DNA of 56,376 nt, from contig CAZWYS010000002.1 of the NCBI GenBank assembly GCA_964638295.1, forward strand, positions 1 to 56,376. Direction: 5' to 3'. This document shows positions 5,686 through 55,921 of the stretch, piece after piece; positions within the stretch are counted from its first letter, which is position 1; each line of letters starts with the position of its first letter. The notes under the pieces were generated by a model that was given only the letters and a program-made list of their open reading frames with translations, was not told the DNA's origin and did no database searches. The translations under genes were made by a program, and so were the position numbers. This DNA is from an uncultured Dehalococcoidaceae bacterium. GTDB taxonomy: Bacteria > Chloroflexota > Dehalococcoidia > Dehalococcoidales > RBG-16-60-22.

Positions 5686-6513
5686 CTAGAGGCTATTATA
5701 AGTTGCCTGCAGAAGCATGGCATCCTTTTCCAGATTGGGACTCTCGCAGATAACCATGCCCCTGACATCATAATCCTTCAGGGCGGCGAGGAGTTCAGCA
5801 TAGTGGAAGTCTGATTCTTCCAAGTCCAGGTGCTTTAATTCTCCCTTTTTACCGTAATGAATCCCGGAAACATGGATATGCATATTACTCAGGGCGCTGC
5901 TGCCTAACCGCTCTCTGATCTGGAGCAAAATAGAGGCAAACTCCGAATAGGAATTGAACTCTCCGGTCCGGGCATGCCAGTGAGCAAAGTCAATACAGGG
6001 GGCTGCCCCTTCAAGCTCAGCGCTAAGACTTAACACCTCCTCCACAGTTCCGAACTGAGTGCCTTTACCGGTAACTTCCAGCCTGATACACACCGGGTTA
6101 TTTTCCCGCTTTAGCTGGTTCAAGACTTCTTCCAGATGTTTTTTAACCGCATGGTAGACGTTTTCCGGAGGGTCACCAAGATAAAAGGCGGGGTGGAAAA
6201 CCACGCTTTCAGCATGGCACAGCGCCGCAATGCGAGCGGTTTGCAGAATCCGGTCCTGGCTGGCCCTTATCTTTTCCAGCTCGTGGGCGTTAAGGTTGAT
6301 AAAATATGGAGCGTGAGCCGACAACCTGACGCCTTTTTGGGTAGCCACGTCAGCAACCAGGCGAGCCGCCCCCTCACCCATCTTCACTCCCCGGACAAAT
6401 TCAACCTCCATGCAGCCGAGCCCCAGTTCGGCAATGCGCTCAATACCGCCGATAGTGGATTGAGGCTTAGCGCTGTGGGGAGTACCTGCGGTTCCAAAAA
6501 GCAAGCCAGCCAT
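5686..6513 (-). CDS. Xylose-isomerase-like TIM-barrel protein, AP endonuclease family 2 (endonuclease IV-like)
   Basis: Motifs LSAHAPYFINL, VVFHP, IRLEVTG, IDFAHWHA and HIHVSG. Start placed at MAGLLFGTAG because the longer ORF (to 6564) runs into the tRNA gene. Confidence 0.7.
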   Translation of the reverse strand: MAGLLFGTAGTPHSAKPQSTIGGIERIAELGLGCMEVEFVRGVKMGEGAARLVADVATQKGVRLSAHAPYFINLNAHELEKIRASQDRILQTARIAALCHAESVVFHPAFYLGDPPENVYHAVKKHLEEVLNQLKRENNPVCIRLEVTGKGTQFGTVEEVLSLSAELEGAAPCIDFAHWHARTGEFNSYSEFASILLQIRERLGSSALSNMHIHVSGIHYGKKGELKHLDLEESDFHYAELLAALKDYDVRGMVICESPNLEKDAMLLQATYNSL

Positions 6514-6540
6514 TTTTCCGCACCGTCCCAAAACTACCCG

Positions 6541-6612
6541 AGCCAGCGAATGGATTCGAACCATCGACCGGCGGTTTACGAAACCGCTGCTCTACCCCTG
6601 AGCTACGCTGGC
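6541..6612 (-). tRNA. tRNA-Thr, anticodon CGU; CCA not encoded
   Basis: The minus strand GCCAGCGTAGCTCAGGGGTAGAGCAGCGGTTTCGTAAACCGCCGGTCGATGGTTCGAATCCATTCGCTGGCT folds as a 72-nt cloverleaf. It has a 7-bp acceptor stem, GCTC/GAGC D stem, GCGGT/ACCGC anticodon stem with loop TTCGTAA, and a T loop TTCGAAT. Confidence 0.9.
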
Positions 6613-36825: not shown

Positions 36826-38262
36826 CTACCCCTTTGACACCCCGGCCAATTTTTTGCCAAAGGCGAGTATTCTTTTCACACGTGCCGGGGAATCGGTCTC
36901 CGTATAGAGACGAAGCACTGGCTCAGTTCCGGAAAATCTGATTAGCAACCAGGTATTGTCAGCCAGAATGTACCGGAAACCATCAAGCGTGTCTGTTTTA
37001 ACTACTTTAACACCCTCTATGGACGGCGGCGGATTATCCTTGAGGCGGTCAATGATAGCCTGGCGTTGCTTTTCGGGGAAGGTAACATCTACCCGGTCAT
37101 AGTAGTGAGGACCTACTTTACGGTAGAGATAATCCAGAAGCTCCGACGGGGTTTTACCCGTCTTAATCATCAGGTCGAGGAAATAGAGACTGGCCAGAAT
37201 ACCATCCCGTTCCGGTACATGTCCCCGGAAACCATAGCCACCGCTCTCCTCCCCACCAATAAGCGCCTTTTCCGCCAGCATTATCGGGGCAACGTACTTA
37301 AAACCGACCGCCGTCTCAAATACCGGCACGTCAAATATTTCCCCCAAGCGATAAAGCATACTGGTAGAAGTTATCGTCTTAATCATCGGACCGCGCTCAC
37401 CACGTACCTCCAAAAGATAAAGACAGAGCAGCGCAAACACCTGGAGCTGCGTCAGAAACGTTCCTTTCTCATCAATGATACCTACACGGTCGGCATCGCC
37501 ATCGGTCGCCAGTCCCACATTCGCCTTTTGCTCCTTCACCATAGTTGAGAGTTGAGCCAGATTAACCGTAATTGGCTCCGGGCGTACCATACCGGGAAAG
37601 AGCGGGTTTCGCTCCCCGTTTATCTCAATTACTTCGGTAGTTCCCCCGCCCAAAATCGTCTTAAGATAGCCGGCACCGGCACCATACATGGGGTCAACTA
37701 TCACTTTAAGACCCGATTGGCGCAATTCAGCAAGGTTAACCAGCTTAGCTATCTGGTCGAAATAGAGGGGGGTTAAATCAAGATACTCCGCCAGTCCTTG
37801 CTCCAAAGCAGTGGTTAGCGGCACTTGTTTTACTTTACCGATAGCCAAGGTCTGGGCAATAATTTTTTCTATTTGAGCGGTAACCTCATCCGGAGCGCTG
37901 GAGCCATGTTCATCCTTATACTTAAAACCGCTCCAGATTCCCGGATTATGACTGGCAGTTATGATAATGGCGCCACCTGCCCTTTTCGCCAGGACGCCGA
38001 AGCTGATAACCGGCGTTGGTGTTGCCCTGGGGCAAAGGTAAACTTTTATCCCGTTGCCCGTAACCACCTCAGCCGCCGCCGCCGCAAAGTCTTCCGAGGC
38101 AAAACGAGTATCATAGCCAATAACCAGTCCCCTGCTGACCAAGCCAGCCTGTTTCAGGTAGCCAGCCACTCCCTGAGCACAAGTCCGTACATTATCAAAG
38201 GTGAAATCCTGAGCAATAATCGCTCGCCAGCCGTCAGTGCCAAATTTAATTGGATTATTCAT
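36826..38262 (-). CDS. Phosphoglucomutase/phosphomannomutase-family enzyme
   Basis: Starts MNNPIKFGTDGWRAI. Phosphoserine loop ITASHNPG and Mg loop ATDGDADR. Its ATG shares one nucleotide with the upstream gene's TGA. Confidence 0.85.
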   Translation of the reverse strand: MNNPIKFGTDGWRAIIAQDFTFDNVRTCAQGVAGYLKQAGLVSRGLVIGYDTRFASEDFAAAAAEVVTGNGIKVYLCPRATPTPVISFGVLAKRAGGAIIITASHNPGIWSGFKYKDEHGSSAPDEVTAQIEKIIAQTLAIGKVKQVPLTTALEQGLAEYLDLTPLYFDQIAKLVNLAELRQSGLKVIVDPMYGAGAGYLKTILGGGTTEVIEINGERNPLFPGMVRPEPITVNLAQLSTMVKEQKANVGLATDGDADRVGIIDEKGTFLTQLQVFALLCLYLLEVRGERGPMIKTITSTSMLYRLGEIFDVPVFETAVGFKYVAPIMLAEKALIGGEESGGYGFRGHVPERDGILASLYFLDLMIKTGKTPSELLDYLYRKVGPHYYDRVDVTFPEKQRQAIIDRLKDNPPPSIEGVKVVKTDTLDGFRYILADNTWLLIRFSGTEPVLRLYTETDSPARVKRILAFGKKLAGVSKG

Positions 38263-38936
38263 CAGCTCACACCTTCCTTCGGTAACAAATCGCAAAAGTA
38301 AAAAGAATCCCGCGACACTGATTCTCCCAGGGTATAAGCTATTCTCTTCTTAAATATCGGCCCGGCAAAGACAAACGAATGAAACTCCCCGTTCTCGCCG
38401 TCCGGGTCAACGGCAGGCGGCAGCTCAGCCAGAAACCGCTCATCAATCACCCTGCCGAGAAACCTCTCATTCAAGACCCGGGTATCAACACAGGTAACGA
38501 CCGCCTGGAAGCCCAGTATTATAAATGACCTGGCAAGCTCAGCAGTATCCCTCCCCCATATCGGGAAGACTCCCTCCATGTCCAATTTTGATAAATTATT
38601 CTGGCGGTATTCCCTTATCCAGTCCAGAAAGACATCACCAAAAACTACCCGGGTGATGCCGCTTTGTTTAAACTCGGCGAGGACTTCACTCATTTTAGAC
38701 TCATATTCTTCGTCGGAACAGGACTTGGGAACCAGCACTTTGGCAATGGGCAGGCCCAAGGAGTATGCCTGCTGCTCAACCAGTGTCCGGCGCACACCGT
38801 GCATACTAACCCGGTCATAGTCCTCGTTTATGGTGGTGAGTAAAGAGACTATTTCGTACCTTTGATTCTTTTGAATTTCATAAAGGGCAAGGGCACTATC
38901 TTTACCACCACTCCAGCAGAAGAGCACTTTTTCCAT
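38262..38936 (-). CDS. Dph6-related PP-loop ATP pyrophosphatase (MJ0570/COG2102-like)
   Basis: 224 aa with PP-loop CWSGGKDS near the N-terminus; family-like throughout. Confidence 0.7.
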   Translation of the reverse strand: MEKVLFCWSGGKDSALALYEIQKNQRYEIVSLLTTINEDYDRVSMHGVRRTLVEQQAYSLGLPIAKVLVPKSCSDEEYESKMSEVLAEFKQSGITRVVFGDVFLDWIREYRQNNLSKLDMEGVFPIWGRDTAELARSFIILGFQAVVTCVDTRVLNERFLGRVIDERFLAELPPAVDPDGENGEFHSFVFAGPIFKKRIAYTLGESVSRDSFYFCDLLPKEGVS

Positions 38937-38978
38937 TTTGAGATTATCCGCTACCTCACCCCCCTAATCCCCCCACCT

Positions 38979-39143
38979 TCAACCGTGGCGTACGAAAGGT
39001 AAAACTCCGGCTGTCTCCCGCATGATACTACCAGAGGACACAGGGATAGTATAATACATCCTGACCTTTTCATCATCTGTCTCAATCTTTTCGACAAAGG
39101 ACTTCAAAAAGACTCTTTGCTCCGTGATTGAAGACTTTGCCAG
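38979..39143 (-). pseudogene. Remnant of the C-terminal end of a serine-recombinase-type integrase gene
   Basis: The minus frame is open for 54 codons with no start codon: LAKSSITEQRVFLKSFVEKIETDDEKVRMYYTIPVSSGSIMRETAGVLPFVRHG*. The pattern F-L-K-S-F-V-E-K-I-E ... Y-T-I-P ... VLP-V ... G resembles C-termini of large serine recombinases (from memory). Confidence 0.45.
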
Positions 39144-39198
39144 TCAATTTCTCAGGCCATTGGTGCAGTGCCGAAAGAAACCGGCTAACAAACATTAT

Positions 39199-40581
39199 TT
39201 AATGAGCCGCCGGTGAATACTCTTTTTCTATCTTTCTACGTAGTTGGAACAAGAATCCACTTTCATCCATGGTAACGTCGTCGTAAGTAATAAAGGAATC
39301 CTTAGCCACGTTTCGGGTCAATTTGGCCTTTTCGCTCAATTCTACTGGCAGATATTTTTTCGCAAAGCTCTGCTCTGCCGGCACTAACCGGCCGAAGATA
39401 GCATATCCACCTGGACCGTCAATAACATCGCCGGCCTTCAAGTCTTTTTTAGCCGTGGCGACAACATCACCCGCCACCGAAACTGGCGTACCCGTTGGCG
39501 CATTAAATAAGCCGACCTGAGCAACGCTAAAACCCAATTCCAGTCCAAGGATATGGATTGGACGGAATAGCATCGAGTATTTGCCCGAAGAGTCCGTTAG
39601 TATTCGGTTTTGATTGTTAAAGTAAGTCATGAAGTGACTTACATATTCAGAACGGCCTTTAAATACGGTATAAACGCCCCACAAAGGACCCCAGTGGGGG
39701 CTCTGTATCAACACCTTCCCATCCCGCGTCCTGACGGATGGCACCTCCACAGTGCCGCTGTGCTCTAAAATGCCGCCCTCTGAAATAGGCTTGAGCATAT
39801 TGGGTGAATCGTCATATGATACCACCGGGTACGTTAAGCCGCGCTTCTGTGGAATGAGATTACAGGCGTTGGCTACCGAGCACATTTCAATGGCTGTTTT
39901 GGTACCGTCGACAAAAGAAGTATACATCTTCGTGTTGAAATGCCCGCTCTTTACTTGCTCTTCAGAATATCCGTAGTGTTCCCAGACGTTGTCCGGAGTA
40001 GTATATTCCTGTCCAACCTTGTGTAGTTTGTAGTCCCCGGCGCAGACGACTTCAAAACCAAAGGTTCGCACCCAGTCAATCTGTTCACAGAGACAAGCCG
40101 GCTGGTCACCATAACCCAGCGAATACACAAGGCCCTTCTTGTCGGCCAATTGTTTGAGCGCACTTCCCACCAGATGGTCAGCTTCAACGGTCACCGTGAT
40201 GACATGCTTTCCTGATTCCAGTGCCTTCCAGGAATGATAGGCTCCGGCTTCAGCAACTCCGGTAACTTCGATAACGATGTCAAGCTCGGCACCAATCAAT
40301 TGCTCCGCATCTTCGGTCAAAACTACTTTCCCACTTCTGGCGCCATCATTTATTTCGTTAACGGTGTTAGCCAAGGAAATGCTCCCTTCCGACCAGCCAG
40401 CTTTGGTGCATACCTCCCGAGCCTTCCCGATGTCCAATTCAGCAACGCTCACCAGCTTTATGCCAGGAATGAACGGCGACTGGGCAATAAACTGGGCAGA
40501 GTACCTGCCAGCACCTATGATGCCAACTCTAATCGGCTTACCAATTGCCTCCCTTTGTTTGAGAAGATTGTACATATTCAT
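39199..40581 (-). CDS. NAD(P)-dependent oxidoreductase with a C-terminal SAF domain (COG4091 'predicted homoserine dehydrogenase' type)
   Basis: 460 aa. Rossmann VGIIGAGRYS, and a SAF-like beta-clip region KKDLKAGDVIDGPGGY. Last gene of the TRAP operon. Confidence 0.65.
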   Translation of the reverse strand: MNMYNLLKQREAIGKPIRVGIIGAGRYSAQFIAQSPFIPGIKLVSVAELDIGKAREVCTKAGWSEGSISLANTVNEINDGARSGKVVLTEDAEQLIGAELDIVIEVTGVAEAGAYHSWKALESGKHVITVTVEADHLVGSALKQLADKKGLVYSLGYGDQPACLCEQIDWVRTFGFEVVCAGDYKLHKVGQEYTTPDNVWEHYGYSEEQVKSGHFNTKMYTSFVDGTKTAIEMCSVANACNLIPQKRGLTYPVVSYDDSPNMLKPISEGGILEHSGTVEVPSVRTRDGKVLIQSPHWGPLWGVYTVFKGRSEYVSHFMTYFNNQNRILTDSSGKYSMLFRPIHILGLELGFSVAQVGLFNAPTGTPVSVAGDVVATAKKDLKAGDVIDGPGGYAIFGRLVPAEQSFAKKYLPVELSEKAKLTRNVAKDSFITYDDVTMDESGFLFQLRRKIEKEYSPAAH

Positions 40582-40695
40582 TTAAAAACCTCCCTAACTT
40601 GATAATTACAGCAAAGGCAAACTGGTACCTTGCTGACACCAGCATTGCCTGTGCGCCGGGTCGCACTTTTCCCTGGCGCCAGATTTCTACTCCAG

Positions 40696-41661
40696 TTAGC
40701 CTTTCCCTGGCTTATCTTGTAGTCCCTCCACGAAATATTTATCGGGCAGTTTCTCACCTCCCCACCTGGCTGCCCTCTCATCTTTGGGTAGAAATTTCTC
40801 TTCGTATTCTTCGACTTCAGGTAGCCTTATAACCTCCTGCACTATTTCCCAGGGGAACGCTCTGCCTTCTCCGACAAGATCGGGGAGCCTTCCTGCTTCT
40901 TTGATCTCCATCGCAGCATCGTATACTGCCTTTGGAGCGACGGTGAACGCCAACTCCGGCAGTATGTGCATAGCATATCCCATCTCAGCCATTTCTTTAA
41001 ATGTCAGGCCGTATCTATGACTGAAGGCTCCTTGTAGAAATAGCGGCGGCTCCAACTGCTTTGCATCTTCTATTATGTCTTTTACATCACGAGGTGCTTC
41101 TGGGAATAACACATCTGCCCCGGCCTTTTTATAGGCTCTTAATCTATCGTACATGCCTTCGTTTCCTTCAATGGCTCTGGCATCACAACGCGCAATGATA
41201 ATCAAATTAGGGTCTTCTCTGGCTTCAACACAAGCCCTTATCTTGCCAACCATTTCTTCTTTGGAAACAAGAAGTTTTCCCTTCATGAAACCACACTTTT
41301 TTGACCCTGCCTGGTCCTCTATATGGAATGCCGCCATACCCGCCTGCTCAAACTCCCTCATGGCACGTATCACGTTAACCGCGTTACCATAACCGGTATC
41401 CATATCGGTGATGAGCGGAATGTTAATGGCATTACAAATATTTTTAATGGTCAAAAACATCTCCGTCATCGTGGTCAGACCGACATCAGTCCAGGCCAGC
41501 ATACCGGCTCCGACACCATGACCTGTCATATAAACGGCTTCGTAGCCGGCTTTCTCAAAGACCCTGGCGGTCAACGCATCGTATGCTCCCGGTGCCAGTA
41601 TGAATTCCCCTTTATCCAGCTTCTTCCTCAACTTGGCTCTTAATATCTTGAATTTTTCCAT
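40696..41661 (-). CDS. Isocitrate lyase/PEP mutase-superfamily protein, paralog 1 (KKCGF variant)
   Basis: 321 aa. GAYDALTARV, DMDTGYGN, EDQ...KKCGFMKGK. Confidence 0.85.
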   Translation of the reverse strand: MEKFKILRAKLRKKLDKGEFILAPGAYDALTARVFEKAGYEAVYMTGHGVGAGMLAWTDVGLTTMTEMFLTIKNICNAINIPLITDMDTGYGNAVNVIRAMREFEQAGMAAFHIEDQAGSKKCGFMKGKLLVSKEEMVGKIRACVEAREDPNLIIIARCDARAIEGNEGMYDRLRAYKKAGADVLFPEAPRDVKDIIEDAKQLEPPLFLQGAFSHRYGLTFKEMAEMGYAMHILPELAFTVAPKAVYDAAMEIKEAGRLPDLVGEGRAFPWEIVQEVIRLPEVEEYEEKFLPKDERAARWGGEKLPDKYFVEGLQDKPGKG

Positions 41662-41778
41662 ACTACTTTCCTCCTATCTATTGTAAATAATTAAATAATC
41701 CAGACTGTCTGGAAACTCATTCTGCCAGATGACTTAAGCCATAAAGCAAATCTCACCTTGGGACTAACCCCAGAGTGA

Positions 41779-42747
41779 TTACGGCATCCCCTCAATATAG
41801 TAGGTGTCCGCCTCGGGCAGCTTCTCGCTCTTCCACCGTTTCATCTTTACTTCTTTTGGCAGGTAGATATCTTCGATACGTTGTGCCTCAGGTAGTCGTA
41901 TGAGGTCTTGTATTTCTTTCCAGGCAAATTGCTTGCCCTGCTTGACGTAGTCCGGGTATATCCCGGTCTCTTTCAGCTCGACCGCTACATCGTATAGGGC
42001 TTTTGGCGCGATGGTGAACCCTATCTCAGGCACTATCACAACAGAATAGCCCATATCAGCGACATCCTTGAAGGTGAGACCGTACCTAGGCCCAAGCCAG
42101 TTGCCAATCAGGTAGAGCGGGGCCTTCTCTTTAAGACGTTTGGCGTCTTGCCTTATGTCCTCCCCATCGCGGGGGGCTTCCGGGTAAAGCAAATCGGCAC
42201 CAGCTTCGGCGTACGCCGCGAGCCTTTCGTACATGCTTTCCGGGCCTTCAACTGCCCTTGCATCACAACGCACTACTATCAGCAAGTTAGGGTCCTCTCT
42301 TGCATCTGTCGCCGCTTTAATCTTGCCTATCATCTCCTCTTTAGAGATAAGGGCCTTGCCCTTCATGAAGCCGCATTTCTTTGGCATAGCCTGGTCCTCC
42401 ATCTGGACCATTGCCACCCCGGCCTGCTCAAATTCCCTGATGGCACGCACGACATTAACGGCGTTGCCATAACCCGTGTCCATATCTGAGATGAGAGGAA
42501 TGTTAATGGCGTTGCAGATATTCCTGGCTGCCCAAACCATTTCCGTCATTGTGGTCAGGCCGACATCGGTCCATGCCAGCATAGAAGCGCCGATGCCGTG
42601 TCCCGTCATGTATACGGCCTCATAGCCAGCCTTCTCGAATACTCTCGCCGAAAGCGCATCATACGCGCCCAGGGCGGTAACGAGTTCACCTTTATCCACC
42701 TTTTCCCGTAACTTTCGCCTTAAGATCTTGAACTTTTCCGTTTTCAA
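41779..42747 (-). CDS. Isocitrate lyase/PEP mutase-superfamily protein, paralog 2 (KKCGF variant)
   Basis: 322 aa. About two-thirds identical to paralog 1 by eye, with the same motifs. Confidence 0.85.
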   Translation of the reverse strand: MKTEKFKILRRKLREKVDKGELVTALGAYDALSARVFEKAGYEAVYMTGHGIGASMLAWTDVGLTTMTEMVWAARNICNAINIPLISDMDTGYGNAVNVVRAIREFEQAGVAMVQMEDQAMPKKCGFMKGKALISKEEMIGKIKAATDAREDPNLLIVVRCDARAVEGPESMYERLAAYAEAGADLLYPEAPRDGEDIRQDAKRLKEKAPLYLIGNWLGPRYGLTFKDVADMGYSVVIVPEIGFTIAPKALYDVAVELKETGIYPDYVKQGKQFAWKEIQDLIRLPEAQRIEDIYLPKEVKMKRWKSEKLPEADTYYIEGMP

Positions 42748-42803
42748 ACCCTCCTTTGCTCGAGTACTTAACTTGGACCTACAGGCAGACGGTTTTCGTT
42801 AGG

Positions 42804-43742
42804 TCACTGCTTGTTTCCTCTCGAGTATTTACGGCTCAGCGTTTCCTCCGGTAGATACATTTTTTCCATATCCCAGACTTTGTCTAGACCCATTACATTC
42901 CCGAACTCGTAAAAGTCCATGAGATTCTCACGATACGATGCCACATTACCTGTTTCTCTTAGTTGATTGAGGGCGTCCTTCATAGCCTTGGCTGCGGCGA
43001 GCCACGTTGTGGCTGGGAAAGTTATAATCTTAAACCCGATCTCCTCCGCCTCCTTGACCGTAATCAGAGGTGTCAGTCCACCTACCTCCACCATGTTTAA
43101 CATCAGCGGCGCAGTGCTTTCAGCGACCGCTTTCTTCATATCATCCAGGCTTTTCAGGGCTTCGACGAACCCCAGGTCAATGCCTGCCTCATGACACAGA
43201 TTCACCCTTTCAATGGCGTCTTCTATGCCATTCACCGCAATAGCATCTGTTCTCAGCATCAGGGTAAAGGTCGGGTCCTGTTCGTTTCTTGCCCTCACGG
43301 CAGCACGTGCTCTACCAAGCAACTCCTCCTTGGATATAACCTCTTTGCCAGCCATGTGGCCACACCTCTTGGGCCACGCCTGGTCCTCGAAGAAGAGACC
43401 GCTTGCTCCAGCCCATATAAATTCCTTTACCGTCCGGTATACGTTAATCGCATTGCCATAGCCTGTATCCGCATCGGCAAACAACGGTATATTGACCGCC
43501 TTGGCCATCCGGTAGACTTTCCACTGCATTTCGCCAAAACACATAAGCCCCACATCCGACTGTCCGATAGTGCTGGCGGAACTGCCATAGCCGGAGTGAC
43601 CAATAGTGTCAAAGCCTGCCTGCTCTATGAGCCTTGCGCTTACGGTGTCGTAAGCCCCGGGCTGCACGATAATCCCCGGTCTTGCCAGTAACTCTCTGAA
43701 TCTTTTTCGCTTATCTGCGTCAATTCTCTGCGTGTCAAGCAT
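42804..43742 (-). CDS. Isocitrate lyase/PEP mutase-superfamily lyase, paralog 3 (canonical KRCGHM signature; methylisocitrate/dimethylmalate-lyase-like)
   Basis: 312 aa. GAYDTVSARL, DADTGYGN, EDQAWPKRCGHMAGK. Confidence 0.85.
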   Translation of the reverse strand: MLDTQRIDADKRKRFRELLARPGIIVQPGAYDTVSARLIEQAGFDTIGHSGYGSSASTIGQSDVGLMCFGEMQWKVYRMAKAVNIPLFADADTGYGNAINVYRTVKEFIWAGASGLFFEDQAWPKRCGHMAGKEVISKEELLGRARAAVRARNEQDPTFTLMLRTDAIAVNGIEDAIERVNLCHEAGIDLGFVEALKSLDDMKKAVAESTAPLMLNMVEVGGLTPLITVKEAEEIGFKIITFPATTWLAAAKAMKDALNQLRETGNVASYRENLMDFYEFGNVMGLDKVWDMEKMYLPEETLSRKYSRGNKQ

Positions 43743-43826
43743 CTCTCGCTCTCCTCTCTAGTAACTCTCTGGATCTCCTCAATTCATCTGTATCACCTGA
43801 CTGGGCGTCCGGTACCCCCCTTCACA

Positions 43827-45167
43827 TCAGCCGCCGAAAGTGACCCTAGGCAGCCACAGGACTATGTCCGGGAAGATTGAGCAGAGCACAATGACGAAGA
43901 ATACTACGCAAATAAACGGGTAGACTCCCCTTATGATATCTCCGGTCTGGACACCGAGCTTCGGATCGGCTGCTCCACGCAAATAGAATATGGCTGTGGC
44001 GAACGGGGGGCTCAGGAACCCCATTTGGAGATTGACCACCACCATCATTACCGCCCAAAGCAGGTCAAAGCCCAGAATCTCAATGGCGGGGAGCAGGATG
44101 GGAACGATGATGAAGATAATCCCCATCCAGTCCATGAACATTCCAAGGATAAATACCAAGAACATGATCGCTGCGAAGCTTCCCCATCTTCCACCCGGAG
44201 CCGCCACTATGATTTCGGCAACGGCATCTCCCCCACCCAGGAGAAGAAAGATAGACGTATAAGCTACTGACAGAACCGCTATGAGCAGGACCATCCCGGT
44301 CAATCGCATCGTTTCATTTACGGCTTTCTTGAGGGAAGCAACCGAGAATCTCCGGTAGGCAATTACCATCAAAGTGGTGACAAACCCACCGAAGGCGGCG
44401 GCTTCTGTCGGAGATGCGAGACCCAGTATAATGCTGCCGAGCACTGCGAGAATGACTATGCCGGGTGGCACGAACGAAGTCAGCAGGAGGGACAGTCTTG
44501 CGGTAAAGGGCGTGGCACGTATCTCTTCCGCGGCGGCCGGAGGGCCTGCGGTGGGTTGTAGAACACAACGAATGGTAACATAGAGAACATACATGCCAGC
44601 CAGGAGAAATCCAGGTAGAAACGCCGCTCCGAACAGCCTTCCCACCGATATACCTGTGAGCGGCCCGAGAACCACCAGCATAATACTGGGGGGAATAAGG
44701 ATACCCAGAGTGCCGCCGGCACAAACTGAGCCTGCGGCTAAACTTTTTGAATAACCTCGCTTTACCATGGAGGGAAGGGCGATAAGTGTCAACATGCTCA
44801 CGGAGGCACCGATGACCCCTACACAGGTAGCTAGTACCGCGCCAAGGGCGATGGTGCTGGCGGCCAGTCCTCCGCGTAACCGACCCAAGAAGAGGAACAA
44901 TGCCCGGTACATCTTCTCAGCCAGTCCGGAACTTTCCAGAATAGACCCCATGTAGATGAACATGGGCAAAGCGAGCAAGGTGTAGCTGTGTATCTTACCG
45001 AACAACTGCATATAAATTACGTCGATGGAGCTCATTCCCCGAGTGAGCAGGCCAATAAAGAGCCCCACTGAGCCGACTGCCAGAGCCAAAGGAAACCCAC
45101 TCATCACCGCGACCACCAACGCCACCAGCATAACTATGGCAACAGTTTGTGGACCCAGTTCAATCAC
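43827..45167 (-). CDS. TRAP transporter large permease (DctM family)
   Basis: 446 aa, polytopic. ATGA overlap with the upstream small-subunit gene. Confidence 0.9.
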   Translation of the reverse strand: MIELGPQTVAIVMLVALVVAVMSGFPLALAVGSVGLFIGLLTRGMSSIDVIYMQLFGKIHSYTLLALPMFIYMGSILESSGLAEKMYRALFLFLGRLRGGLAASTIALGAVLATCVGVIGASVSMLTLIALPSMVKRGYSKSLAAGSVCAGGTLGILIPPSIMLVVLGPLTGISVGRLFGAAFLPGFLLAGMYVLYVTIRCVLQPTAGPPAAAEEIRATPFTARLSLLLTSFVPPGIVILAVLGSIILGLASPTEAAAFGGFVTTLMVIAYRRFSVASLKKAVNETMRLTGMVLLIAVLSVAYTSIFLLLGGGDAVAEIIVAAPGGRWGSFAAIMFLVFILGMFMDWMGIIFIIVPILLPAIEILGFDLLWAVMMVVVNLQMGFLSPPFATAIFYLRGAADPKLGVQTGDIIRGVYPFICVVFFVIVLCSIFPDIVLWLPRVTFGG

Positions 45168-45682
45168 GGTTGTTCTCCTACAGCGAGAAAGTAGATGTCA
45201 CGCACAAAGCCAGCGGCTCCCTGGAAGAAAAACAGAAGGAAGCCCACCATCATAAACGCCCTGCTCGGCCATATGGGGGGATACCAGATACTCACTATCC
45301 ATGTCTCATGGCTCACCCATGAGTCTATCAGCCACTGAGCACATACGTATGTGAGCAGCCCAAGCAAGGGGAACATGAACAACACAGTACAGACCGCACG
45401 TACGACGACTTGCTTTCTGAGTGAAAGCCGCCTATACAGGATGTCCATGCTAACGTGGGAGTGGTGCAGGTGTATATAGCCCCATGACAGGGGAATCAGT
45501 ATGCCCCCCATTATCATGACACTCTGATGTGCCCAGACGGTGGGACTATTGAAGAAATACCGTGCTACCACCTCATAGCTAGTAGCGAGTAGCATCCCTA
45601 TTACTACCCATCGTACGGTCAACCCCACCTTTTCGCTGACCTGGTCAGTGTTTCTCAGTAACCATTTCATGTCAGAAATCAA
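45164..45682 (-). CDS. TRAP transporter small permease (DctQ family)
   Basis: 172 aa, four predicted TM helices, positioned between the SBP and DctM genes. Confidence 0.8.
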   Translation of the reverse strand: MISDMKWLLRNTDQVSEKVGLTVRWVVIGMLLATSYEVVARYFFNSPTVWAHQSVMIMGGILIPLSWGYIHLHHSHVSMDILYRRLSLRKQVVVRAVCTVLFMFPLLGLLTYVCAQWLIDSWVSHETWIVSIWYPPIWPSRAFMMVGFLLFFFQGAAGFVRDIYFLAVGEQP

Positions 45683-45691
45683 TATCCTAAC

Positions 45692-45732
45692 CAGTCTTCT
45701 CTCCGCTCAACAAAGGAGCGGAGAGAAGACTG
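45692..45732 (-). promoter_or_regulatory. Perfect 17-bp intercistronic stem-loop between the TRAP SBP and permease genes
   Basis: CAGTCTTCTCTCCGCTC-AACAAAG-GAGCGGAGAGAAGACTG. It sits about 35 nt after the SBP stop and 10 nt before the dctQ-like ATG. No U-tract follows. Confidence 0.6.
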
Positions 45733-45766
45733 CCAATATGTTTGTGCTAATTGAGAAGGTGCGTCA

Positions 45767-46951
45767 TTACCTGACGCCCAGAGCGTCACACAGGTCCTTA
45801 AATCTGAACATGGACTCCAGCACCATGTCATACTCCGGGTCCGCAGCCCGTTTGGCTGCGTAGTATTCTCGAGCCGCCTCTATGTATGCTTGTTCCACCG
45901 CTACAGGCAAAGGCTCCACGATACACCCATAGTCAATGTATTTCTGCGCATACTCTCCCTCCAGTGCCACGGCTGGGGCCAAAACCCTCGCTGTCTCAAC
46001 GTTGAAGGCATCCATCACGATTTGCTGAAGGTCTGGTGTGAGTGCCTCCCATTTTGGCTTATATACGTTGATAGTGCCTTCGGTCATGGGCGCACGCGAG
46101 TAAGAGGTATAGTGATACTTCGCGATTTCGTGGAATCCTCGGGCATAGTCAACATAGAAAGTGTTTGATTCACAGGCGTCAATGACACCGCGCTGGGCTG
46201 ATTCATAGATCTCACTGCTCGGCATATATACGGTAGGCATCCCCATGTTATCTAAAATCTCCGCGCCGTCCCCGGTGGCTCGCATCTTAATATTTTTGAG
46301 GTCGTCGACGACCTTGATCGGCTTTGATGTATGAATCCACACCTCTCCGAGCTGCACCTGGGTCCACACGTACTGTAAGTCCCCCATATATTTGTCAAAC
46401 AAGCTCTGGATTATGTCTCTGCCTTCATACTCCACCCACAGCGAGAATTGCACCGCAGTCAGGCCTCCTGATACCTGTGACAACGGGGAGAACACTTCAG
46501 ACAAGCCCTTCAGATACGCAAATGAATTCTCTCCAGCATCAATTGCGCCCTTGTTGGCTGACATAAGCTCTTCACCCGCAGTCACAATTGCTCCTGCGGG
46601 ATGTAGTTTGATTACCAGACGCCCCCCGGCTGCGACATTACATCTTTCGACGGCTTCCTCAAACGCCCCATATTGGGGGTCGCCGGATTTATAGTGAGTC
46701 TGCATGACCCAGGTGATTGTCTTGGGGGCCTGAGCCGGAGCCGGTGCCGGGGCTGGGGCTGGAGCCGGCGCTGGGGCTGGAGCTGGGGCTGGAGCCGGGG
46801 CTGGGGCTGGAGCCGGCGCTGGGGCTGGTGCTGGGGCTGGAGCCGGCGCCGGAGCTGGGGCTGGGGCCGGTGCAGGGGCTGGTGCAGCACAAGCAATCAA
46901 GCCCGCGATTAACAACAATACTAACGGGATTAATAATATTTTCTTTTTCAT
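45767..46951 (-). CDS. TRAP transporter solute-binding lipoprotein (DctP family) with an (Ala-Pro)25 tether
   Basis: 394 aa. Signal peptide with lipobox LIAC, then A(AP)25AQAP, then a DctP-like domain of about 315 aa. RBS GGAGG. Confidence 0.85.
   Translation of the reverse strand: MKKKILLIPLVLLLIAGLIACAAPAPAPAPAPAPAPAPAPAPAPAPAPAPAPAPAPAPAPAPAPAPAPAPAPAQAPKTITWVMQTHYKSGDPQYGAFEEAVERCNVAAGGRLVIKLHPAGAIVTAGEELMSANKGAIDAGENSFAYLKGLSEVFSPLSQVSGGLTAVQFSLWVEYEGRDIIQSLFDKYMGDLQYVWTQVQLGEVWIHTSKPIKVVDDLKNIKMRATGDGAEILDNMGMPTVYMPSSEIYESAQRGVIDACESNTFYVDYARGFHEIAKYHYTSYSRAPMTEGTINVYKPKWEALTPDLQQIVMDAFNVETARVLAPAVALEGEYAQKYIDYGCIVEPLPVAVEQAYIEAAREYYAAKRAADPEYDMVLESMFRFKDLCDALGVR
46736..46885 (-). repeat. 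150-nt uninterrupted GCN-CCN coding microsatellite, (Ala-Pro)25
   Basis: I counted 25 consecutive Ala-Pro codon pairs. The plus-strand 16-mer CTGGGGCTGGAGCCGG recurs at 46753, 46783, 46801 and 46831. Confidence 0.9.
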
Positions 46952-47026
46952 CTGAAAACTCCTCCATTTAGACTTTGGTCGGCAAAAATTAAACTACTAC
47001 TGAAAGCTATCACCCCCTTTCTCTCT

Positions 47027-47052
47027 TATTTAGTTATTCTATTTAGTTATTC
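47027..47052. repeat. Perfect tandem 13-mer TATTTAGTTATTC x2 upstream of the TRAP operon
   Basis: Adjacent identical copies at 47027-47039 and 47040-47052, 76-101 nt upstream of the SBP ATG. Confidence 0.6.
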
Positions 47053-47231
47053 AAGCTAAATTTGCTTTTAACTAGATTTAGTCGCAGGATACCACTAATA
47101 CGATTATACCCAGGATTACAACGGAAGGAATCCCGGCTCCAGTTCACCCTGCTCTCCCCGACAGAACCCGCCTATAGACTTCATCCGCACCCGTCTGAAA
47201 AAGTTGAGGTTACCACAGAAATATACCCGAT

Positions 47232-47260
47232 AAGATAACACAAAATAGTATTTTTGTCAA
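47232..47260 (-). promoter_or_regulatory. Candidate TRAP-operon promoter TTGACA-N17-TATCTT with TG extension (TGTTATCTT)
   Basis: Read on the minus strand just downstream of the metK stop. It would give a leader of about 270 nt. An alternative TATAAT lies at 47103-47108. Confidence 0.4.
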
Positions 47261-47287
47261 CAAGTCTCCTAAGCTTCTATAACCAGG

Positions 47288-53069: not shown

Positions 53070-54122
53070 TCAGTCCAGCGAAAGCGGGTACTGGCCAAAC
53101 TCTCTTATTGCTTTGACCATGGCCACATAGTTCTCCGGTTTGACTCCGGAATGAATTGAATTACTGGACATGCAGATAAGACCTCCTCCCTTCCCCGCCT
53201 TCCTGATGACTTCCTTCGTTTCCTGCCGCACCTCCTCCACCGTCCCGGAAACCAGGCTGAAAGCACAGCTCACGTTGCCGCACAGGCAAACTTTATCACC
53301 AAACTTAGCTTTAGCCTCACCAATATCCATGCCCGCCATCGGGTCTATGGGATTAAGACCATCAATACCGGTGTCAAGGATAATATCGTAGACAGGCCAG
53401 ATATTACCATCGGTGTGCTTAATACACGGTACACCCCGACTGTGAGCATATTCAACGAGTTTCTGGAGGGAAGGAGCAAGAAATCTCTTGGTAAATTCAC
53501 GAGAGACCATCGGCTTCTCCGTCATTGCCCAATCCCCATTAATCCACAGTATATCGGCGCCCAAATCAATACAGTTCCGGGCATAGCGCAGTTGGTAGTT
53601 AAGCAGAACCTCGTTAGTCCGGTCGATAAAATCGGGATTTTTTATCATGTTGCGAAAATAGCCTATATCACCTAAAAAATTCTCCCTGCCCAGAGCAAAA
53701 ATGTCGGTCACGCCAACAACGATTGCCCTTTCCCCTTTAAACATCTTCACCATTTGCTTCAGGTGCTCATATCTCCACTCCTCATCCGGGTCAGGAAGTA
53801 CATAGGTATCAAGGTCTTTTTCAGTCTTGACTGCCGGTTTGACCGGCACAGGGTTATCTTCGGTAGTATAACGGACCAGTCCTCCCCACTGGTCCCGCTT
53901 GATTCTCTTTTCCGCATCTACCGTCTCATAGCTCCAGGACTGGGTTCTATCAATGAACCTGACGCCATCCAAATCCATGTATTCAACGAAATCTTCTTCA
54001 GAAGCATCAGGCAATATGGCATCTCTTACCTTCTTCGTAACCCTCTCAAAGTGAGGAACCACGTCTGGCTCCTGAAGCTTCAGCGCCGTGAATACCCGCT
54101 CCAGACCACTAAGTCTCCTCAT
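53070..54122 (-). CDS. Uroporphyrinogen-decarboxylase-family (MtaA/CmuA-type) corrinoid methyltransferase
   Basis: About 350 aa, URO-D-fold-like sequence. Start placed at MRRLSGLERV, with GGGAG 8 nt upstream; an alternative ATG is at 54128. Directly follows the corrinoid protein gene. Confidence 0.7.
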   Translation of the reverse strand: MRRLSGLERVFTALKLQEPDVVPHFERVTKKVRDAILPDASEEDFVEYMDLDGVRFIDRTQSWSYETVDAEKRIKRDQWGGLVRYTTEDNPVPVKPAVKTEKDLDTYVLPDPDEEWRYEHLKQMVKMFKGERAIVVGVTDIFALGRENFLGDIGYFRNMIKNPDFIDRTNEVLLNYQLRYARNCIDLGADILWINGDWAMTEKPMVSREFTKRFLAPSLQKLVEYAHSRGVPCIKHTDGNIWPVYDIILDTGIDGLNPIDPMAGMDIGEAKAKFGDKVCLCGNVSCAFSLVSGTVEEVRQETKEVIRKAGKGGGLICMSSNSIHSGVKPENYVAMVKAIREFGQYPLSLD

Positions 54123-54135
54123 TGCCATCTCTCCC

Positions 54136-54774
54136 TTAAGATTTCCCGACGAGAGCCGCCGCCACTTTCGCTGCGGCGGGCCCGTCCTTCGCATGAGCAT
54201 CAGCACCAATCTTTTCCGCCCATTCTGGTGTCGTGGGTGCCCCGCCGACCATTATCTTGACCCTATCCCTCAACCCGGCTGTCTTTAAAGCTTCTATGGT
54301 TGCGGCCGCGTTAGACATCGTCATCGTCAACAGTGATGACATGCCGAGAATCTGGTAGTCACCTTTATCCACCGCCGAGCAAAATTCCTCTGGCGATACA
54401 TCAACCCCCAAATCGGTTACCTCCCAGCCATTTCCCCGCAACATCATAACCACAATGTTTTTGCCCAGGTTATGCACATCGCCCTGCACCGTTCCGATCA
54501 GGAATTTACCCATATGCGGTGCGCTCTCTTTACTCATTATCGGCGTTAAAAGTTCCAGTGCCTGCGAAACAGCATCACCCGAGACGATTAACTCAGGGAG
54601 AAAATAATCACCGTTTTCAAACAGGTCGCCAACCTTTTGCAGCCCGGGAATAAGACCCCTATCCAGTACTTCATTGGCCGGAATACTGGCATCCAGAGCT
54701 TTCTTGGTCAGCTCAAAAGCAACCTCACCATCTCCTTCGATTATCGCTTGGCTCAGTTCTTCGAGATTGACCAT
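54136..54774 (-). CDS. Corrinoid (B12-binding) protein of the MtaC/MtbC type
   Basis: About 212 aa starting at MVNLEEL with RBS GAGGAGGTGA. N-terminal helical cap, then a Rossmann domain with DxHxxG (GDVHNLGK), SxL (MSSLLT) and GG (VGGAP). Confidence 0.85.
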   Translation of the reverse strand: MVNLEELSQAIIEGDGEVAFELTKKALDASIPANEVLDRGLIPGLQKVGDLFENGDYFLPELIVSGDAVSQALELLTPIMSKESAPHMGKFLIGTVQGDVHNLGKNIVVMMLRGNGWEVTDLGVDVSPEEFCSAVDKGDYQILGMSSLLTMTMSNAAATIEALKTAGLRDRVKIMVGGAPTTPEWAEKIGADAHAKDGPAAAKVAAALVGKS

Positions 54775-54811
54775 TTCACCTCCTCTAAAATGAGCTGATT
54801 TACCGAACAGC

Positions 54812-55921
54812 CTAAAGACCAGCCGGCAATTTGACGCCAAACCGTTCCGCGATAGGGCGCAGATTGCGAATGGTACCCCCGGGGAGAGGAATGCCGTTTC
54901 GCGAACGGTCATCAAAGGCTCTTTCTTCAGGCTCGCCGGGAACGAGTATCTCACTGAAACCTTCCGCCTTGGGCAGGGCTTTCAGACCATCAATAAGATT
55001 ATCAACATGCTCTTTATAGCTTTCCACATCGGTAAACGTGCCGATGTCAATAGCGGCGACAACACTGTTCTGGACGGGGCGGGGAACGTAGTCGGGATGG
55101 CCTCCCGCCGTAGCCTCAGCTTTCTTGTCCTGCGGTGAAGGCTCCACTTTCTTGCCCAATAATATAGGCTCCAATAGCGGGTTGCCCGCCACCACACTGC
55201 CAAGGCACTCAAACATAAGCGCCAGCCCGGAGCCCTTGGGACCACCGAAGGGTAGAAATATAGCCGCCTGGCTGGGGTCAGTGGTGGGGTTGCCGTCTAT
55301 GGTCAGTCCCCAGCCCTCCGGTATGGAAACGCCCCTGTCGACAGCCAGCCAGATTTTGCCCCGCGCCACCACGCTGGTCGCCATGTCCAAAAATAGCACC
55401 CGGTGACGTTTCGCCGGCACGGCAATAGTTATCGGATTGTTGGCTACGCCTGCGGCCTTGGCACCGTAGGGCACCATGTTAGGCGGACTGCAAACAAAAA
55501 CGATTCCCGCCATATCATTCTTCGCCGCCATTTGCGAATAGTAACCCATTGCTCCCTGGTGCGTGTGGTTGCAGATAAACGCCCAGCCAATACCCAGATT
55601 TTTTGCCTTCTCCATTACCCGTTTCATGGCAAAGACAGTAACCACCGGGCCAAAAGCCTGGTCTGACTCAACTACCAAAGTAGCCGGTGTCTCTTTGACC
55701 ACCCTGATATTGGGCTTGGGGTTCATTATGCCCTTGTCCACATTGCCCACATACCACGGAATCCGCAGCACGCCGTGTGAGTCCACCCCCCGCAAGTTGG
55801 CCCATATCAGCATATCCGCCTCGGTTTCGGCATCCTCGGGGGACATACCAACCCGGATAAATACTTCTTTGGTAAACTTTTTTAATTCCTCCCCGGCGAC
55901 TATAACTTCACCCTGTGCCAT
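54812..55921 (-). CDS. Ldh_2-family (malate/L-lactate dehydrogenase type 2, COG2055) NAD(P)H oxidoreductase
   Basis: 369 aa. ...ANLRGVDSHGVLRIP...; RBS AAGGAGGAG. Confidence 0.85.
   Translation of the reverse strand: MAQGEVIVAGEELKKFTKEVFIRVGMSPEDAETEADMLIWANLRGVDSHGVLRIPWYVGNVDKGIMNPKPNIRVVKETPATLVVESDQAFGPVVTVFAMKRVMEKAKNLGIGWAFICNHTHQGAMGYYSQMAAKNDMAGIVFVCSPPNMVPYGAKAAGVANNPITIAVPAKRHRVLFLDMATSVVARGKIWLAVDRGVSIPEGWGLTIDGNPTTDPSQAAIFLPFGGPKGSGLALMFECLGSVVAGNPLLEPILLGKKVEPSPQDKKAEATAGGHPDYVPRPVQNSVVAAIDIGTFTDVESYKEHVDNLIDGLKALPKAEGFSEILVPGEPEERAFDDRSRNGIPLPGGTIRNLRPIAERFGVKLPAGL

Follow-up and report, generated by a model that had tools for sequence, protein, structure and literature searches.

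The stretch of DNA studied here (the window) comprises 56,376 nucleotides (nt) of contig CAZWYS010000002.1, from an uncultured Dehalococcoidaceae bacterium (GenBank assembly GCA_964638295.1). Seven co-directional open reading frames (ORFs) are located on its minus strand at 39199-46951. They encode an importer of the tripartite ATP-independent periplasmic (TRAP) type, three proteins of the isocitrate lyase/phosphoenolpyruvate mutase (ICL/PEPM) superfamily, and an oxidoreductase of the DRL (DXR-II-like) family. The coordinates match those of the initial annotation exactly. Families were assigned by comparing Pfam and NCBIfam profile scores with the curated (equivalog) cut-offs. From the 5' end of the block, the genes are:

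dctP, 45767-46951 (-), 394 amino acids (aa), TRAP solute-binding lipoprotein (PF03480)
dctQ, 45164-45682 (-), 172 aa, TRAP small membrane subunit (PF04290)
dctM, 43827-45167 (-), 446 aa, TRAP large permease (PF06808)
P1, 42804-43742 (-), 312 aa, ICL/PEPM-superfamily lyase with a KRCGH loop (Cys127)
P2, 41779-42747 (-), 322 aa, ICL/PEPM-superfamily lyase with a KKCGF loop (Cys125)
P3, 40696-41661 (-), 321 aa, second P2-type lyase with a KKCGF loop (Cys123)
DRL-like gene, 39199-40581 (-), 460 aa, NAD(P) oxidoreductase (PF21135 and a homoserine-dehydrogenase-type NAD domain)

In gene order from the DRL-like gene to dctP, the intergenic gaps are 114, 117, 56, 84, -4, and 84 nt, as expected from the initial description of seven minus-strand genes with gaps of -4 to 117 nt. 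The start of dctM and the stop of dctQ overlap by 4 nt. A GGAG-type Shine-Dalgarno sequence precedes most of the genes. The Pfam and NCBIfam searches also agreed with the initial annotation that the window block contains no regulator or CoA enzyme.

All three TRAP components were recognized by their profiles: DctP (E 2.6e-33; NF037995, 57.5 bits against a cut-off of 50), DctQ (E 9e-16), and DctM (E 1e-67; TIGR00786, 284.4 bits against 268.45). The three genes are encoded together, and the solute-binding protein (SBP) has the carboxylate-binding Arg, which identifies a DctPQM-type system. This residue, Arg224, lies in the carboxylate-clamp motif KMRATG and aligns with the Arg of NMRIGG in 4yzz. 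The nearest PDB structures of DctP are 4yzz/4yic, 2zzv (lactate), 2hzk/2hzl, and 7ug8 (ketoacid-binding), with E values of 1e-17 to 2e-27. The import of a hydroxy- or oxo-di/tricarboxylate had been proposed; carboxylate import is retained, but the nearest solved SBPs bind 2-oxo acids or lactate, not di- or tricarboxylates. The N-terminus of DctP, MKKKILLIPLVLLLIAGLIAC, is a lipobox (LIAC at residues 18-21). An (Ala-Pro)25 tether at residues 23-72 separates the lipobox Cys from the DctP fold, so that the importer was correctly called "tethered". The (Ala-Pro)25 stretch is unusually long and nearly pure. It is encoded at 46725-46892 of the window (dctP codons ~23-72) by a GGGGCT-type 6/30/48-nt tandem repeat array, in which slippage could lead to variation of the tether length.

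P1, P2, and P3 each matched the PEP_mutase/ICL profiles (PF13714/PF00463) with E values of about 2e-40 (138-139 bits; cut-off 31.5). P2 and P3 share 66% sequence identity, and P1 shares 35-37% with P2/P3; a DNA identity of 76% over 300 nt was recorded for P3. The motifs [ST]DVGL, D[AM]DTGYG, EDQA, K[KR]CG[HF], R[TC]DA, and [VP]EA are present in all three. Equivalents of the PrpB residues D58, D85/D87, E115, C123, R158, and E188 are also kept, and each protein contains the catalytic set of a C-C lyase. Both the profile matches and the catalytic residues support their initial description as three 312-322-aa ICL/PEPM-family proteins. In a quantum mechanics/molecular mechanics and mutagenesis study of ICL, Asp108, Cys191, and Arg228 were the core residues, and Glu182 was considered as an alternative proton acceptor; the equivalents in methylisocitrate lyase (MICL) are D58, E115, and C123 (PMC7609661). 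The loop His is not among the ICL catalytic residues, so the His-to-Phe change in P2 and P3 does not imply inactivity.

None of the three lyases reached any NCBIfam equivalog cut-off. The best model was prpB (TIGR02317), with 229, 232, and 239 bits for the three proteins, against 354.4. At the sites of PrpB N210, T212, and R241, P2 and P3 differ at all three, and P1 differs at T212 and R241. P2 and P3 are wholly divergent across this segment, which is the pocket for the leaving-group (succinate) half of the substrate. The best solved relatives of P1 are the petal death protein (PDP; 1zlp, E 5e-56) and dimethylmalate lyase (DMML; 3fa3, E 8e-52); oxaloacetate acetylhydrolase (OAH; 3lye) matched P1 with E 3e-51. 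For P2, the best is a Bacillus "CPEP mutase" structure without assignment, followed by MICLs. The P2/P3 clade comprises about 60 clusters (90% identity) at 59% identity or more, and none is specifically named. It occurs recurrently beside carboxylate uptake systems (TRAP or TctC). Outside its ortholog in the comparison locus L299 (94%), the nearest relative of P1 is the counterpart in locus L022 (62%). Further relatives of P1 form a broad clade with about 50-59% identity and generic annotations; the source-named members are mostly archaeal.

The 460-aa protein matched DRL_cat (PF21135; E 5.8e-46, 156.9 bits against 27), and its N-terminal NAD domain matched NAD_binding_3 (PF03447; 28.2 bits against 24). 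It aligned over the full length with the Brucella DRL/DXR-II structures (3upl/3upy, E 1.9e-55). A SAF domain (PF08666) was matched in some homologs only, and not in the window protein. The initial annotation had described a COG4091-type dehydrogenase with Rossmann and SAF domains; it is indeed a predicted NAD(P) oxidoreductase, but one of a rare DRL-family subclade. DXR-II enzymes anchor fosmidomycin through Lys191, Lys193, and Thr229, and are set apart from the uncharacterised DLO1 and DLO2 clades by residues such as His250; the DLO-clade members tested did not complement dxr (PMC3847144). In the window protein, Lys191 (the phosphonate anchor) is replaced by Asp, His250 by Thr, and Tyr322 by Ile. 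Lys193, Thr229, and Arg320 are kept, where Lys193 is assigned by the HMMER pairwise alignment and the MAFFT column has Leu. Across 120 homologs, the loop 189-200 (Brucella numbering) falls into discrete motif classes. The AGDY-KLH loop is found only in the window protein and a 92% identical relative (protein P0002); L299 has the variant AGDF-KLY. Because Lys191 is Asp and His250 is Thr, we conclude that the protein, a DRL-family enzyme of a rare subclade, is predicted not to be a DXP reductoisomerase. L-threonate 3-dehydrogenase was considered as a lead and set aside, since that enzyme is a short-chain dehydrogenase/reductase (SDR). Neighbour clustering at 14 analysable DRL-homolog loci (among L001-L016) gave no recurrent partner; the clustering was noisy, as high GC content leads to spurious ORFs.

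Related loci share different parts of the block. A 4.4-kb metagenome contig (L107) contains DctM-P1-P2-P3-DRL at 96-100% identity, and represents the same population as the window. L299, with about 90% DNA identity, contains P1 (94%), P2 (87%), and DRL (88%), and has no P3; a 302-nt non-coding gap (L299 2003-2304) lies between P2 and DRL in place of P3. A family-III CoA-transferase gene (PF02515, E 7e-94) directly follows the DRL gene in L299, where the window has a recombinase remnant. In L268/9, DctP (58%), DctQ (59%), DctM (69%), and a P2-type lyase (75%) are encoded in the same order as in the window; the lyase gene is followed by genes for a thiamine-diphosphate (ThDP) enzyme, a family-III CoA-transferase, a PrpD-like protein, and others. 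A Dehalococcoidales metagenome-assembled genome (MAG; L027) contains DctM (77%) and then two P2-type genes, with no P1. L022/23 contains P1-type (62%) and P2-type (76%) genes, TRAP genes, a LeuCD-type hydratase, and two isochorismatase-family hydrolases. A Burkholderiales MAG (L024/25/28) has a P2-type lyase together with an SDR, TctC binding proteins, and a LeuCD-type hydratase; a CoA ligase and a CoA-transferase are encoded nearby. L026 combines TRAP genes, a family-III CoA-transferase, an HMG-CoA-lyase-like gene, and a P2/P3-type lyase.

These comparisons show that the conserved, co-evolving core is the TRAP importer and the P2-type lyase. P1 followed by P2 is a recurrent pair (window/L107, L299, and L022/23), and P1-P2-DRL is conserved in two lineages (window/L107 and L299). 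P3 is lineage-specific. Its 66% identity to P2 is too low for a recent duplication; the gene was acquired in the window lineage or else disappeared from L299. The initial annotation regarded three paralogs in tandem as the design of the operon. This design is not conserved: L299 has no P3, L027 has two P2-type genes, and L268/9 has one. The arrangement of three paralogs with the importer recurs in nearly identical form in L107 (DctM to DRL), but the other loci hold subsets. An adjacent second ICL-type gene was found in only 7 of the 199 loci with an ICL-type gene. Degenerate patterns built from the alignment of the P2 clade picked up mostly generic MICL-like genes, and the only true members found were in L027, L028, and L107-L109.

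Two other observations concern lyase genes elsewhere. In L267 (8742-10558), a P2-type gene (81-85% identity) is in two fragments with an unrelated opposite-strand 255-aa ORF between them; transposases, among them IS66 and IS256-type, are abundant in the region, and the split gene looks like a disrupted copy. Two metagenome contigs, L138 (1914-11154) and L141 (1665-10843), contain four ICL/PEPM-family genes each, partly as adjacent pairs, so that the superfamily forms multi-copy arrays outside the window as well; TRAP or DRL genes were not detected in these arrays.

The rest of the window is core genome, including MetRS, FtsH, the ribosomal/RpoA region, MetK, AhcY, RtcB, and TrpRS. The window MetK shares 75% identity with that of a Dehalococcoidales MAG, and 62-72% with other Dehalococcoidia. 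At least 14 related loci from Chloroflexota, most of them Dehalococcoidia, have the order ahcY-metK-glmM. In at least five of these, less than 70 nt separate metK and glmM, and the spacing is 25-70 nt in L187, L190, L197, and L251. In the window, these two genes are separated by an insertion; besides the seven genes, it carries a dph6-like gene and an ORF fragment of 54 codons:

Inserted segment, 38296-47287, 8,992 nt between glmM and metK, defined by Dehalococcoidia synteny
Serine-recombinase tail remnant, 38982-39143 (-), 54 codons, no catalytic domain, assigned by protein homology
dph6-like gene, 38262-38936 (-), diphthine-ammonia-ligase-like (PF01902), an ATP pyrophosphatase of the Dph6/PAB0415 type

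This insertion, relative to the ahcY-metK-glmM synteny, agrees with the earlier view of the block as accessory. The recombinase gene remnant said to abut its 3' end was likewise identified, by tail homology of the 54-aa fragment. In a phmmer search of a 1.84-billion-protein library, 112 proteins matched the fragment at their extreme C-terminal ends (best E 6.5e-18). The zinc-ribbon of large serine recombinases (PF13408) lies directly upstream of the matched part in two of the longer proteins; most of the 112 are short predicted proteins (50-280 aa) from metagenomes. As the homology covers only the C-terminal tail, the fragment is a remnant and not a large serine recombinase gene, which would encode a resolvase catalytic domain, a recombinase domain, and a zinc ribbon. 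The tail peptide had no match in phage or plasmid collections. Such 3' ends of recombinase genes seem to persist often, and may mark hot spots of integration. The dph6-like gene overlaps the annotated start of glmM by 34 nt; no homolog of it was seen in the metK-glmM interval of the syntenic relatives.

The P2-type lyases have carboxylate-catabolic neighbours: LeuCD/aconitase-like hydratases, family-III CoA-transferases, HMG-CoA-lyase-like and PrpD-like proteins, a ThDP enzyme, and TctC. The hydratase, CoA-transferase, HMG-CoA-lyase-like, PrpD-like, TctC, and TRAP families all act on short branched or substituted di-/tricarboxylates or on hydroxy acids. Given these partner families, the Arg clamp of the SBP, and the nearest SBP structures, the block may be read as encoding import, NAD(P)-dependent oxidoreduction, and C2-C3 cleavage. 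On sequence evidence, we propose that it is a horizontally acquired catabolic operon for a small carboxylic acid with a 2-hydroxy or 2-oxo group, which is probably substituted or branched, with a probability of about 0.6. We infer the substrate class and the order of the steps. The seven genes are presumably co-transcribed. The general reading of the initial annotation, with carboxylate import, NAD-dependent oxidation, and C-C cleavage, would thus stand. No characterised ortholog of the components or of the cluster was found among the NCBIfam equivalogs, in the PDB, or in the searchable literature, which is consistent with the operon being undescribed, as initially suggested.

In the proposed pathway, the lipid-anchored DctP would capture the acid outside the monoderm cell, and DctQM would import it. 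P1 and P2/P3 would cleave the C2-C3 bond of 2-hydroxy-acid intermediates, with a Mg2+-bound alkoxide and with the loop cysteine as the proton donor. The products would be a 2-oxo acid (of the pyruvate or glyoxylate type) and a shorter carboxylate. The DRL-family enzyme may catalyze an oxidoreduction with NAD(P), which could be an oxidoisomerisation like that of DXR-type enzymes. This step would either prepare the lyase substrate or process a lyase product. Rather than forming one complex, the paralogs most likely differ in the substituents or stereoisomers that they accept. The carboxylate product is then probably converted to a CoA ester, because a family-III CoA-transferase follows the DRL gene in L299. 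At its 3' end, the window operon is probably incomplete; the downstream part was apparently lost at a rearrangement mediated by a serine recombinase. The lack of a CoA-transferase in the window block would probably be secondary, as L299 has one at the place of the recombinase remnant.

Several observations weigh against this proposal. L027, L268/9, and L022 have no DRL gene, and homologs of DRL with 57-59% identity are found in unrelated contexts. Because DRL is not a universal partner of TRAP and P2, its role in the same pathway is deduced only from window/L107 and L299. The likeness of the SBP to monocarboxylate binders reaches only E ~1e-27, with low identity. No att-like direct repeats were found flanking the insertion, and the GC content of the block is not anomalous. 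The enzyme genes are 56-117 nt apart, and weak terminator-like hairpins are present in two of the gaps (40621-40643 and 41699-41713); the counts of such hairpins are no higher than in shuffled sequences.

Several alternatives were considered. An oxalate route is unlikely, if more probable than the others. Here, the DRL enzyme would oxidise an imported substituted malate to an oxaloacetate analogue, the paralogs would be OAH-like hydrolases or decarboxylases that release oxalate and a carboxylic acid, and Frc-like and Oxc-like enzymes would process the oxalate. It would give the dehydrogenase a clear role upstream of C-C cleavage. Both OAH, a solved relative of P1, and the oxaloacetate decarboxylase PA4872 belong to the superfamily. 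The L268/9 ThDP enzyme resembles oxalyl-CoA decarboxylase/2-hydroxyacyl-CoA lyase (200-212 bits), the best match of the L268/9 CoA-transferase is formyl-CoA transferase (270 bits), and that of the L299 enzyme is CoA:oxalate CoA-transferase. However, all these NCBIfam scores are far under the equivalog cut-offs, and the ThDP enzyme scores higher with acetolactate synthase models. OAH-active enzymes presumably carry a Ser at the position equivalent to DMML Pro240. P1, P2, and P3 all have Pro at this site (FPAT, VPEI, and LPEL), where PDP has HSL, and the loop Cys typical of lyases is kept in all three. It is slightly less likely still that P1 and P2/P3 are obligate partners in one hetero-oligomeric lyase, a possibility raised in the initial annotation. 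P1 and P2 are adjacent in three lineages (window/L107, L299, and L022/23). Members of the superfamily are tetramers with swapped C-terminal helices, and mixed tetramers of P2 and P3, at 66% identity, are physically conceivable. On the other hand, the P2 type occurs without the P1 type in L024/25/28, L026, L268/9, and L027; relatives of P1 are widely single genes, mostly from archaea among the named matches; P3 is dispensable in L299; and each paralog has a full catalytic set. Since each lyase type occurs singly elsewhere, specialised paralogs are likelier than an obligate hetero-oligomer.

The methylcitrate-cycle, DXR-II, and phosphonate readings were rejected on the basis of equivalog scores and diagnostic residues. 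That the lyases are duplicated ordinary PrpB or isocitrate lyases, serving the methylcitrate cycle or the glyoxylate shunt, is improbable. The best model is prpB (229-239 bits), and relatives are often annotated as "methylisocitrate lyase" in public databases; yet the scores are well under 354.4, prpC, prpD, and acnD are not in the block, the succinate-binding sites differ (N210, T212, and R241 in P2/P3; T212 and R241 in P1), and the genes lie in an accessory insertion, linked to a transporter. There is very little chance that the DRL gene is the DXR-II of the organism, which would supply the MEP pathway of isoprenoid synthesis and merely adjoin the lyase genes. The full-length match to Brucella DRL and the retained Lys193, Thr229, and Arg320 would fit such an enzyme. 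Against it are the substitutions at Lys191, His250, and Tyr322, the failure of tested DLO-clade members in dxr complementation (PMC3847144), the adjacency to P1-P2 that is kept in L299 and L107, and the location of the gene inside the accessory insertion. The least probable case is a biosynthetic or catabolic phosphonate cluster, with one of the paralogs acting as a PEP mutase, a carboxy-PEP (CPEP) mutase, or a phosphonopyruvate hydrolase. It is suggested by the Pfam family name PEP_mutase and by the CPEP mutase model TIGR02319 (199-230 bits). These scores are under the cut-offs (PEP mutase, 78-100 against 319.55; CPEP mutase, 199-230 against 420.05; phosphonopyruvate hydrolase, 97-119 against 374.4). 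All three paralogs have the lyase-type K(K/R)CG loop Cys, the TRAP importer is of the carboxylate type, and no gene for phosphonopyruvate decarboxylase, an aminotransferase, or C-P lyase was found in the block by Pfam or NCBIfam.

Candidate regulatory elements are located upstream of dctP:

Best promoter candidate, 47232-47260 (-), sigma-70-like TTGACA-17-TATCTT with extended TG, 10/12 matches, just 3' of the metK stop
Perfect 2 x 13-nt tandem repeat, TATTTAGTTATTC, 47027-47052, in the dctP leader, ~75-100 nt upstream of the dctP start

The promoter candidate would imply a leader of about 280 nt; it is a consensus match only, and the counts of such sites in the region are not above those in shuffled sequences. 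The tandem repeat could be an operator, though the block has no regulator gene. The dctP leader had no Rfam match at the gathering threshold nor at E<=1, and its folding was no better than that of shuffled sequences (z +1.19); no riboswitch or structured leader was found.

Outside the insertion, two other features of the window were noted. A tRNA-Thr(CGT) gene at 6540-6612 (-) overlaps the 5' end of a 292-aa AP_endonuc_2 ORF at 5686-6564 (-); because of this overlap, the true start of the ORF would be further downstream. Near the window end, 53070-55921 (-) contains a URO-D-family gene, possibly for an MtaA/CmuA-type methyltransferase, and a gene like those of malate/L-lactate dehydrogenases of the Ldh_2 family. 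These two genes may form another small accessory metabolic unit.

Dehalococcoidia are abundant and largely uncultured, and the organic acids that they consume are poorly known. A further, rather doubtful proposal is that the KKCGF lyase clade and the Asp191 DRL subclade catalyze undescribed reactions, for example a DXR-like, NAD(P)-dependent oxidoisomerisation of a branched hydroxy acid, whose 2-hydroxy-acid product would be the substrate of a C-C lyase with a new specificity. With the dedicated TRAP importer, this would be a new pathway for degrading an environmental carboxylic acid in uncultured Dehalococcoidia. Two targets for enzyme discovery are offered by the block: the unnamed lyase clade (about 60 clusters), which co-evolves with the TRAP importer genes, and the rare DRL subclade, in a family whose non-DXR members (DLO1/DLO2) have been without an assigned function since 2013. 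The SBP provides an experimental handle on the substrate, and hence on the pathway.

The components resemble several known systems. P1 is similar to PDP (1zlp) and DMML (3fa3) in its full-length alignment, KRCGH gating loop, Mg2+ ligands, and lyase Arg and Glu, and all three are without an equivalent of PrpB R241. However, the similarity is moderate, and P1 belongs to a bacterial accessory operon with a TRAP importer, with no nicotinate-fermentation context. Compared with PrpB (1mum, 1o5q, and 3eoo), all three paralogs have the equivalents of D58, E115, C123, R158, and E188; the differences are the KKCGF loop of P2/P3 in place of KRCGH, the wholly different N210/T212/R241 segment of P2/P3, and the absence of methylcitrate-cycle partners. 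Dimethylmaleate hydratase and dimethylmalate lyase form a module of nicotinate fermentation in Eubacterium barkeri. Relatives of the window lyases likewise adjoin LeuCD/aconitase-type hydratases, the P1/P2 pair in L022/23 and the P2 type in L024/25, with the same logic of a hydratase before a lyase; the window, in contrast, has no hydratase but a DRL-family oxidoreductase, and no other nicotinate-pathway genes.

The DRL-like protein has the same fold family as Brucella abortus DRL/DXR-II (PF21135 and a homoserine-dehydrogenase-like NAD domain). Unlike that enzyme, it is in a catabolic and not an isoprenoid context, and behaves like a DLO-type enzyme. A cluster in a Chloroflexota MAG (L018, 2438-8917) contains two DRL genes, one with 59% identity to the window gene. 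Also encoded there are two pairs of Dak1/Dak2, a RuBisCO-like protein, a TIM barrel of the xylose-isomerase type, and isomerases (fucose, lyxose, and RpiB). This gene set is similar, though not identical, to the D-apionate catabolic clusters that have been published, whose oxidoisomerase ApnO may be a DRL-family protein. That pathway combines ApnO with a 3-oxo-isoapionate kinase and a RuBisCO-like decarboxylase or transcarboxylase. The window block does not fit the D-apionate oxidoisomerase pathway, as no kinase or RuBisCO-like protein was found in it by Pfam or NCBIfam. DctP shares the fold and the Arg clamp with SBPs of the TakP/lactate type (2hzk/2hzl, 2zzv, 7ug8, and 4yzz/4yic), but differs in being lipid-anchored via a 50-residue Ala-Pro tether, and the identity is low. 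Every component family is known, as is the architecture of a TRAP importer with catabolic enzymes, and the block is a modular recombination of carboxylate-catabolic families. Its novelty lies in the KKCGF lyase clade and the Asp191 DRL subclade, and in the linkage of both.

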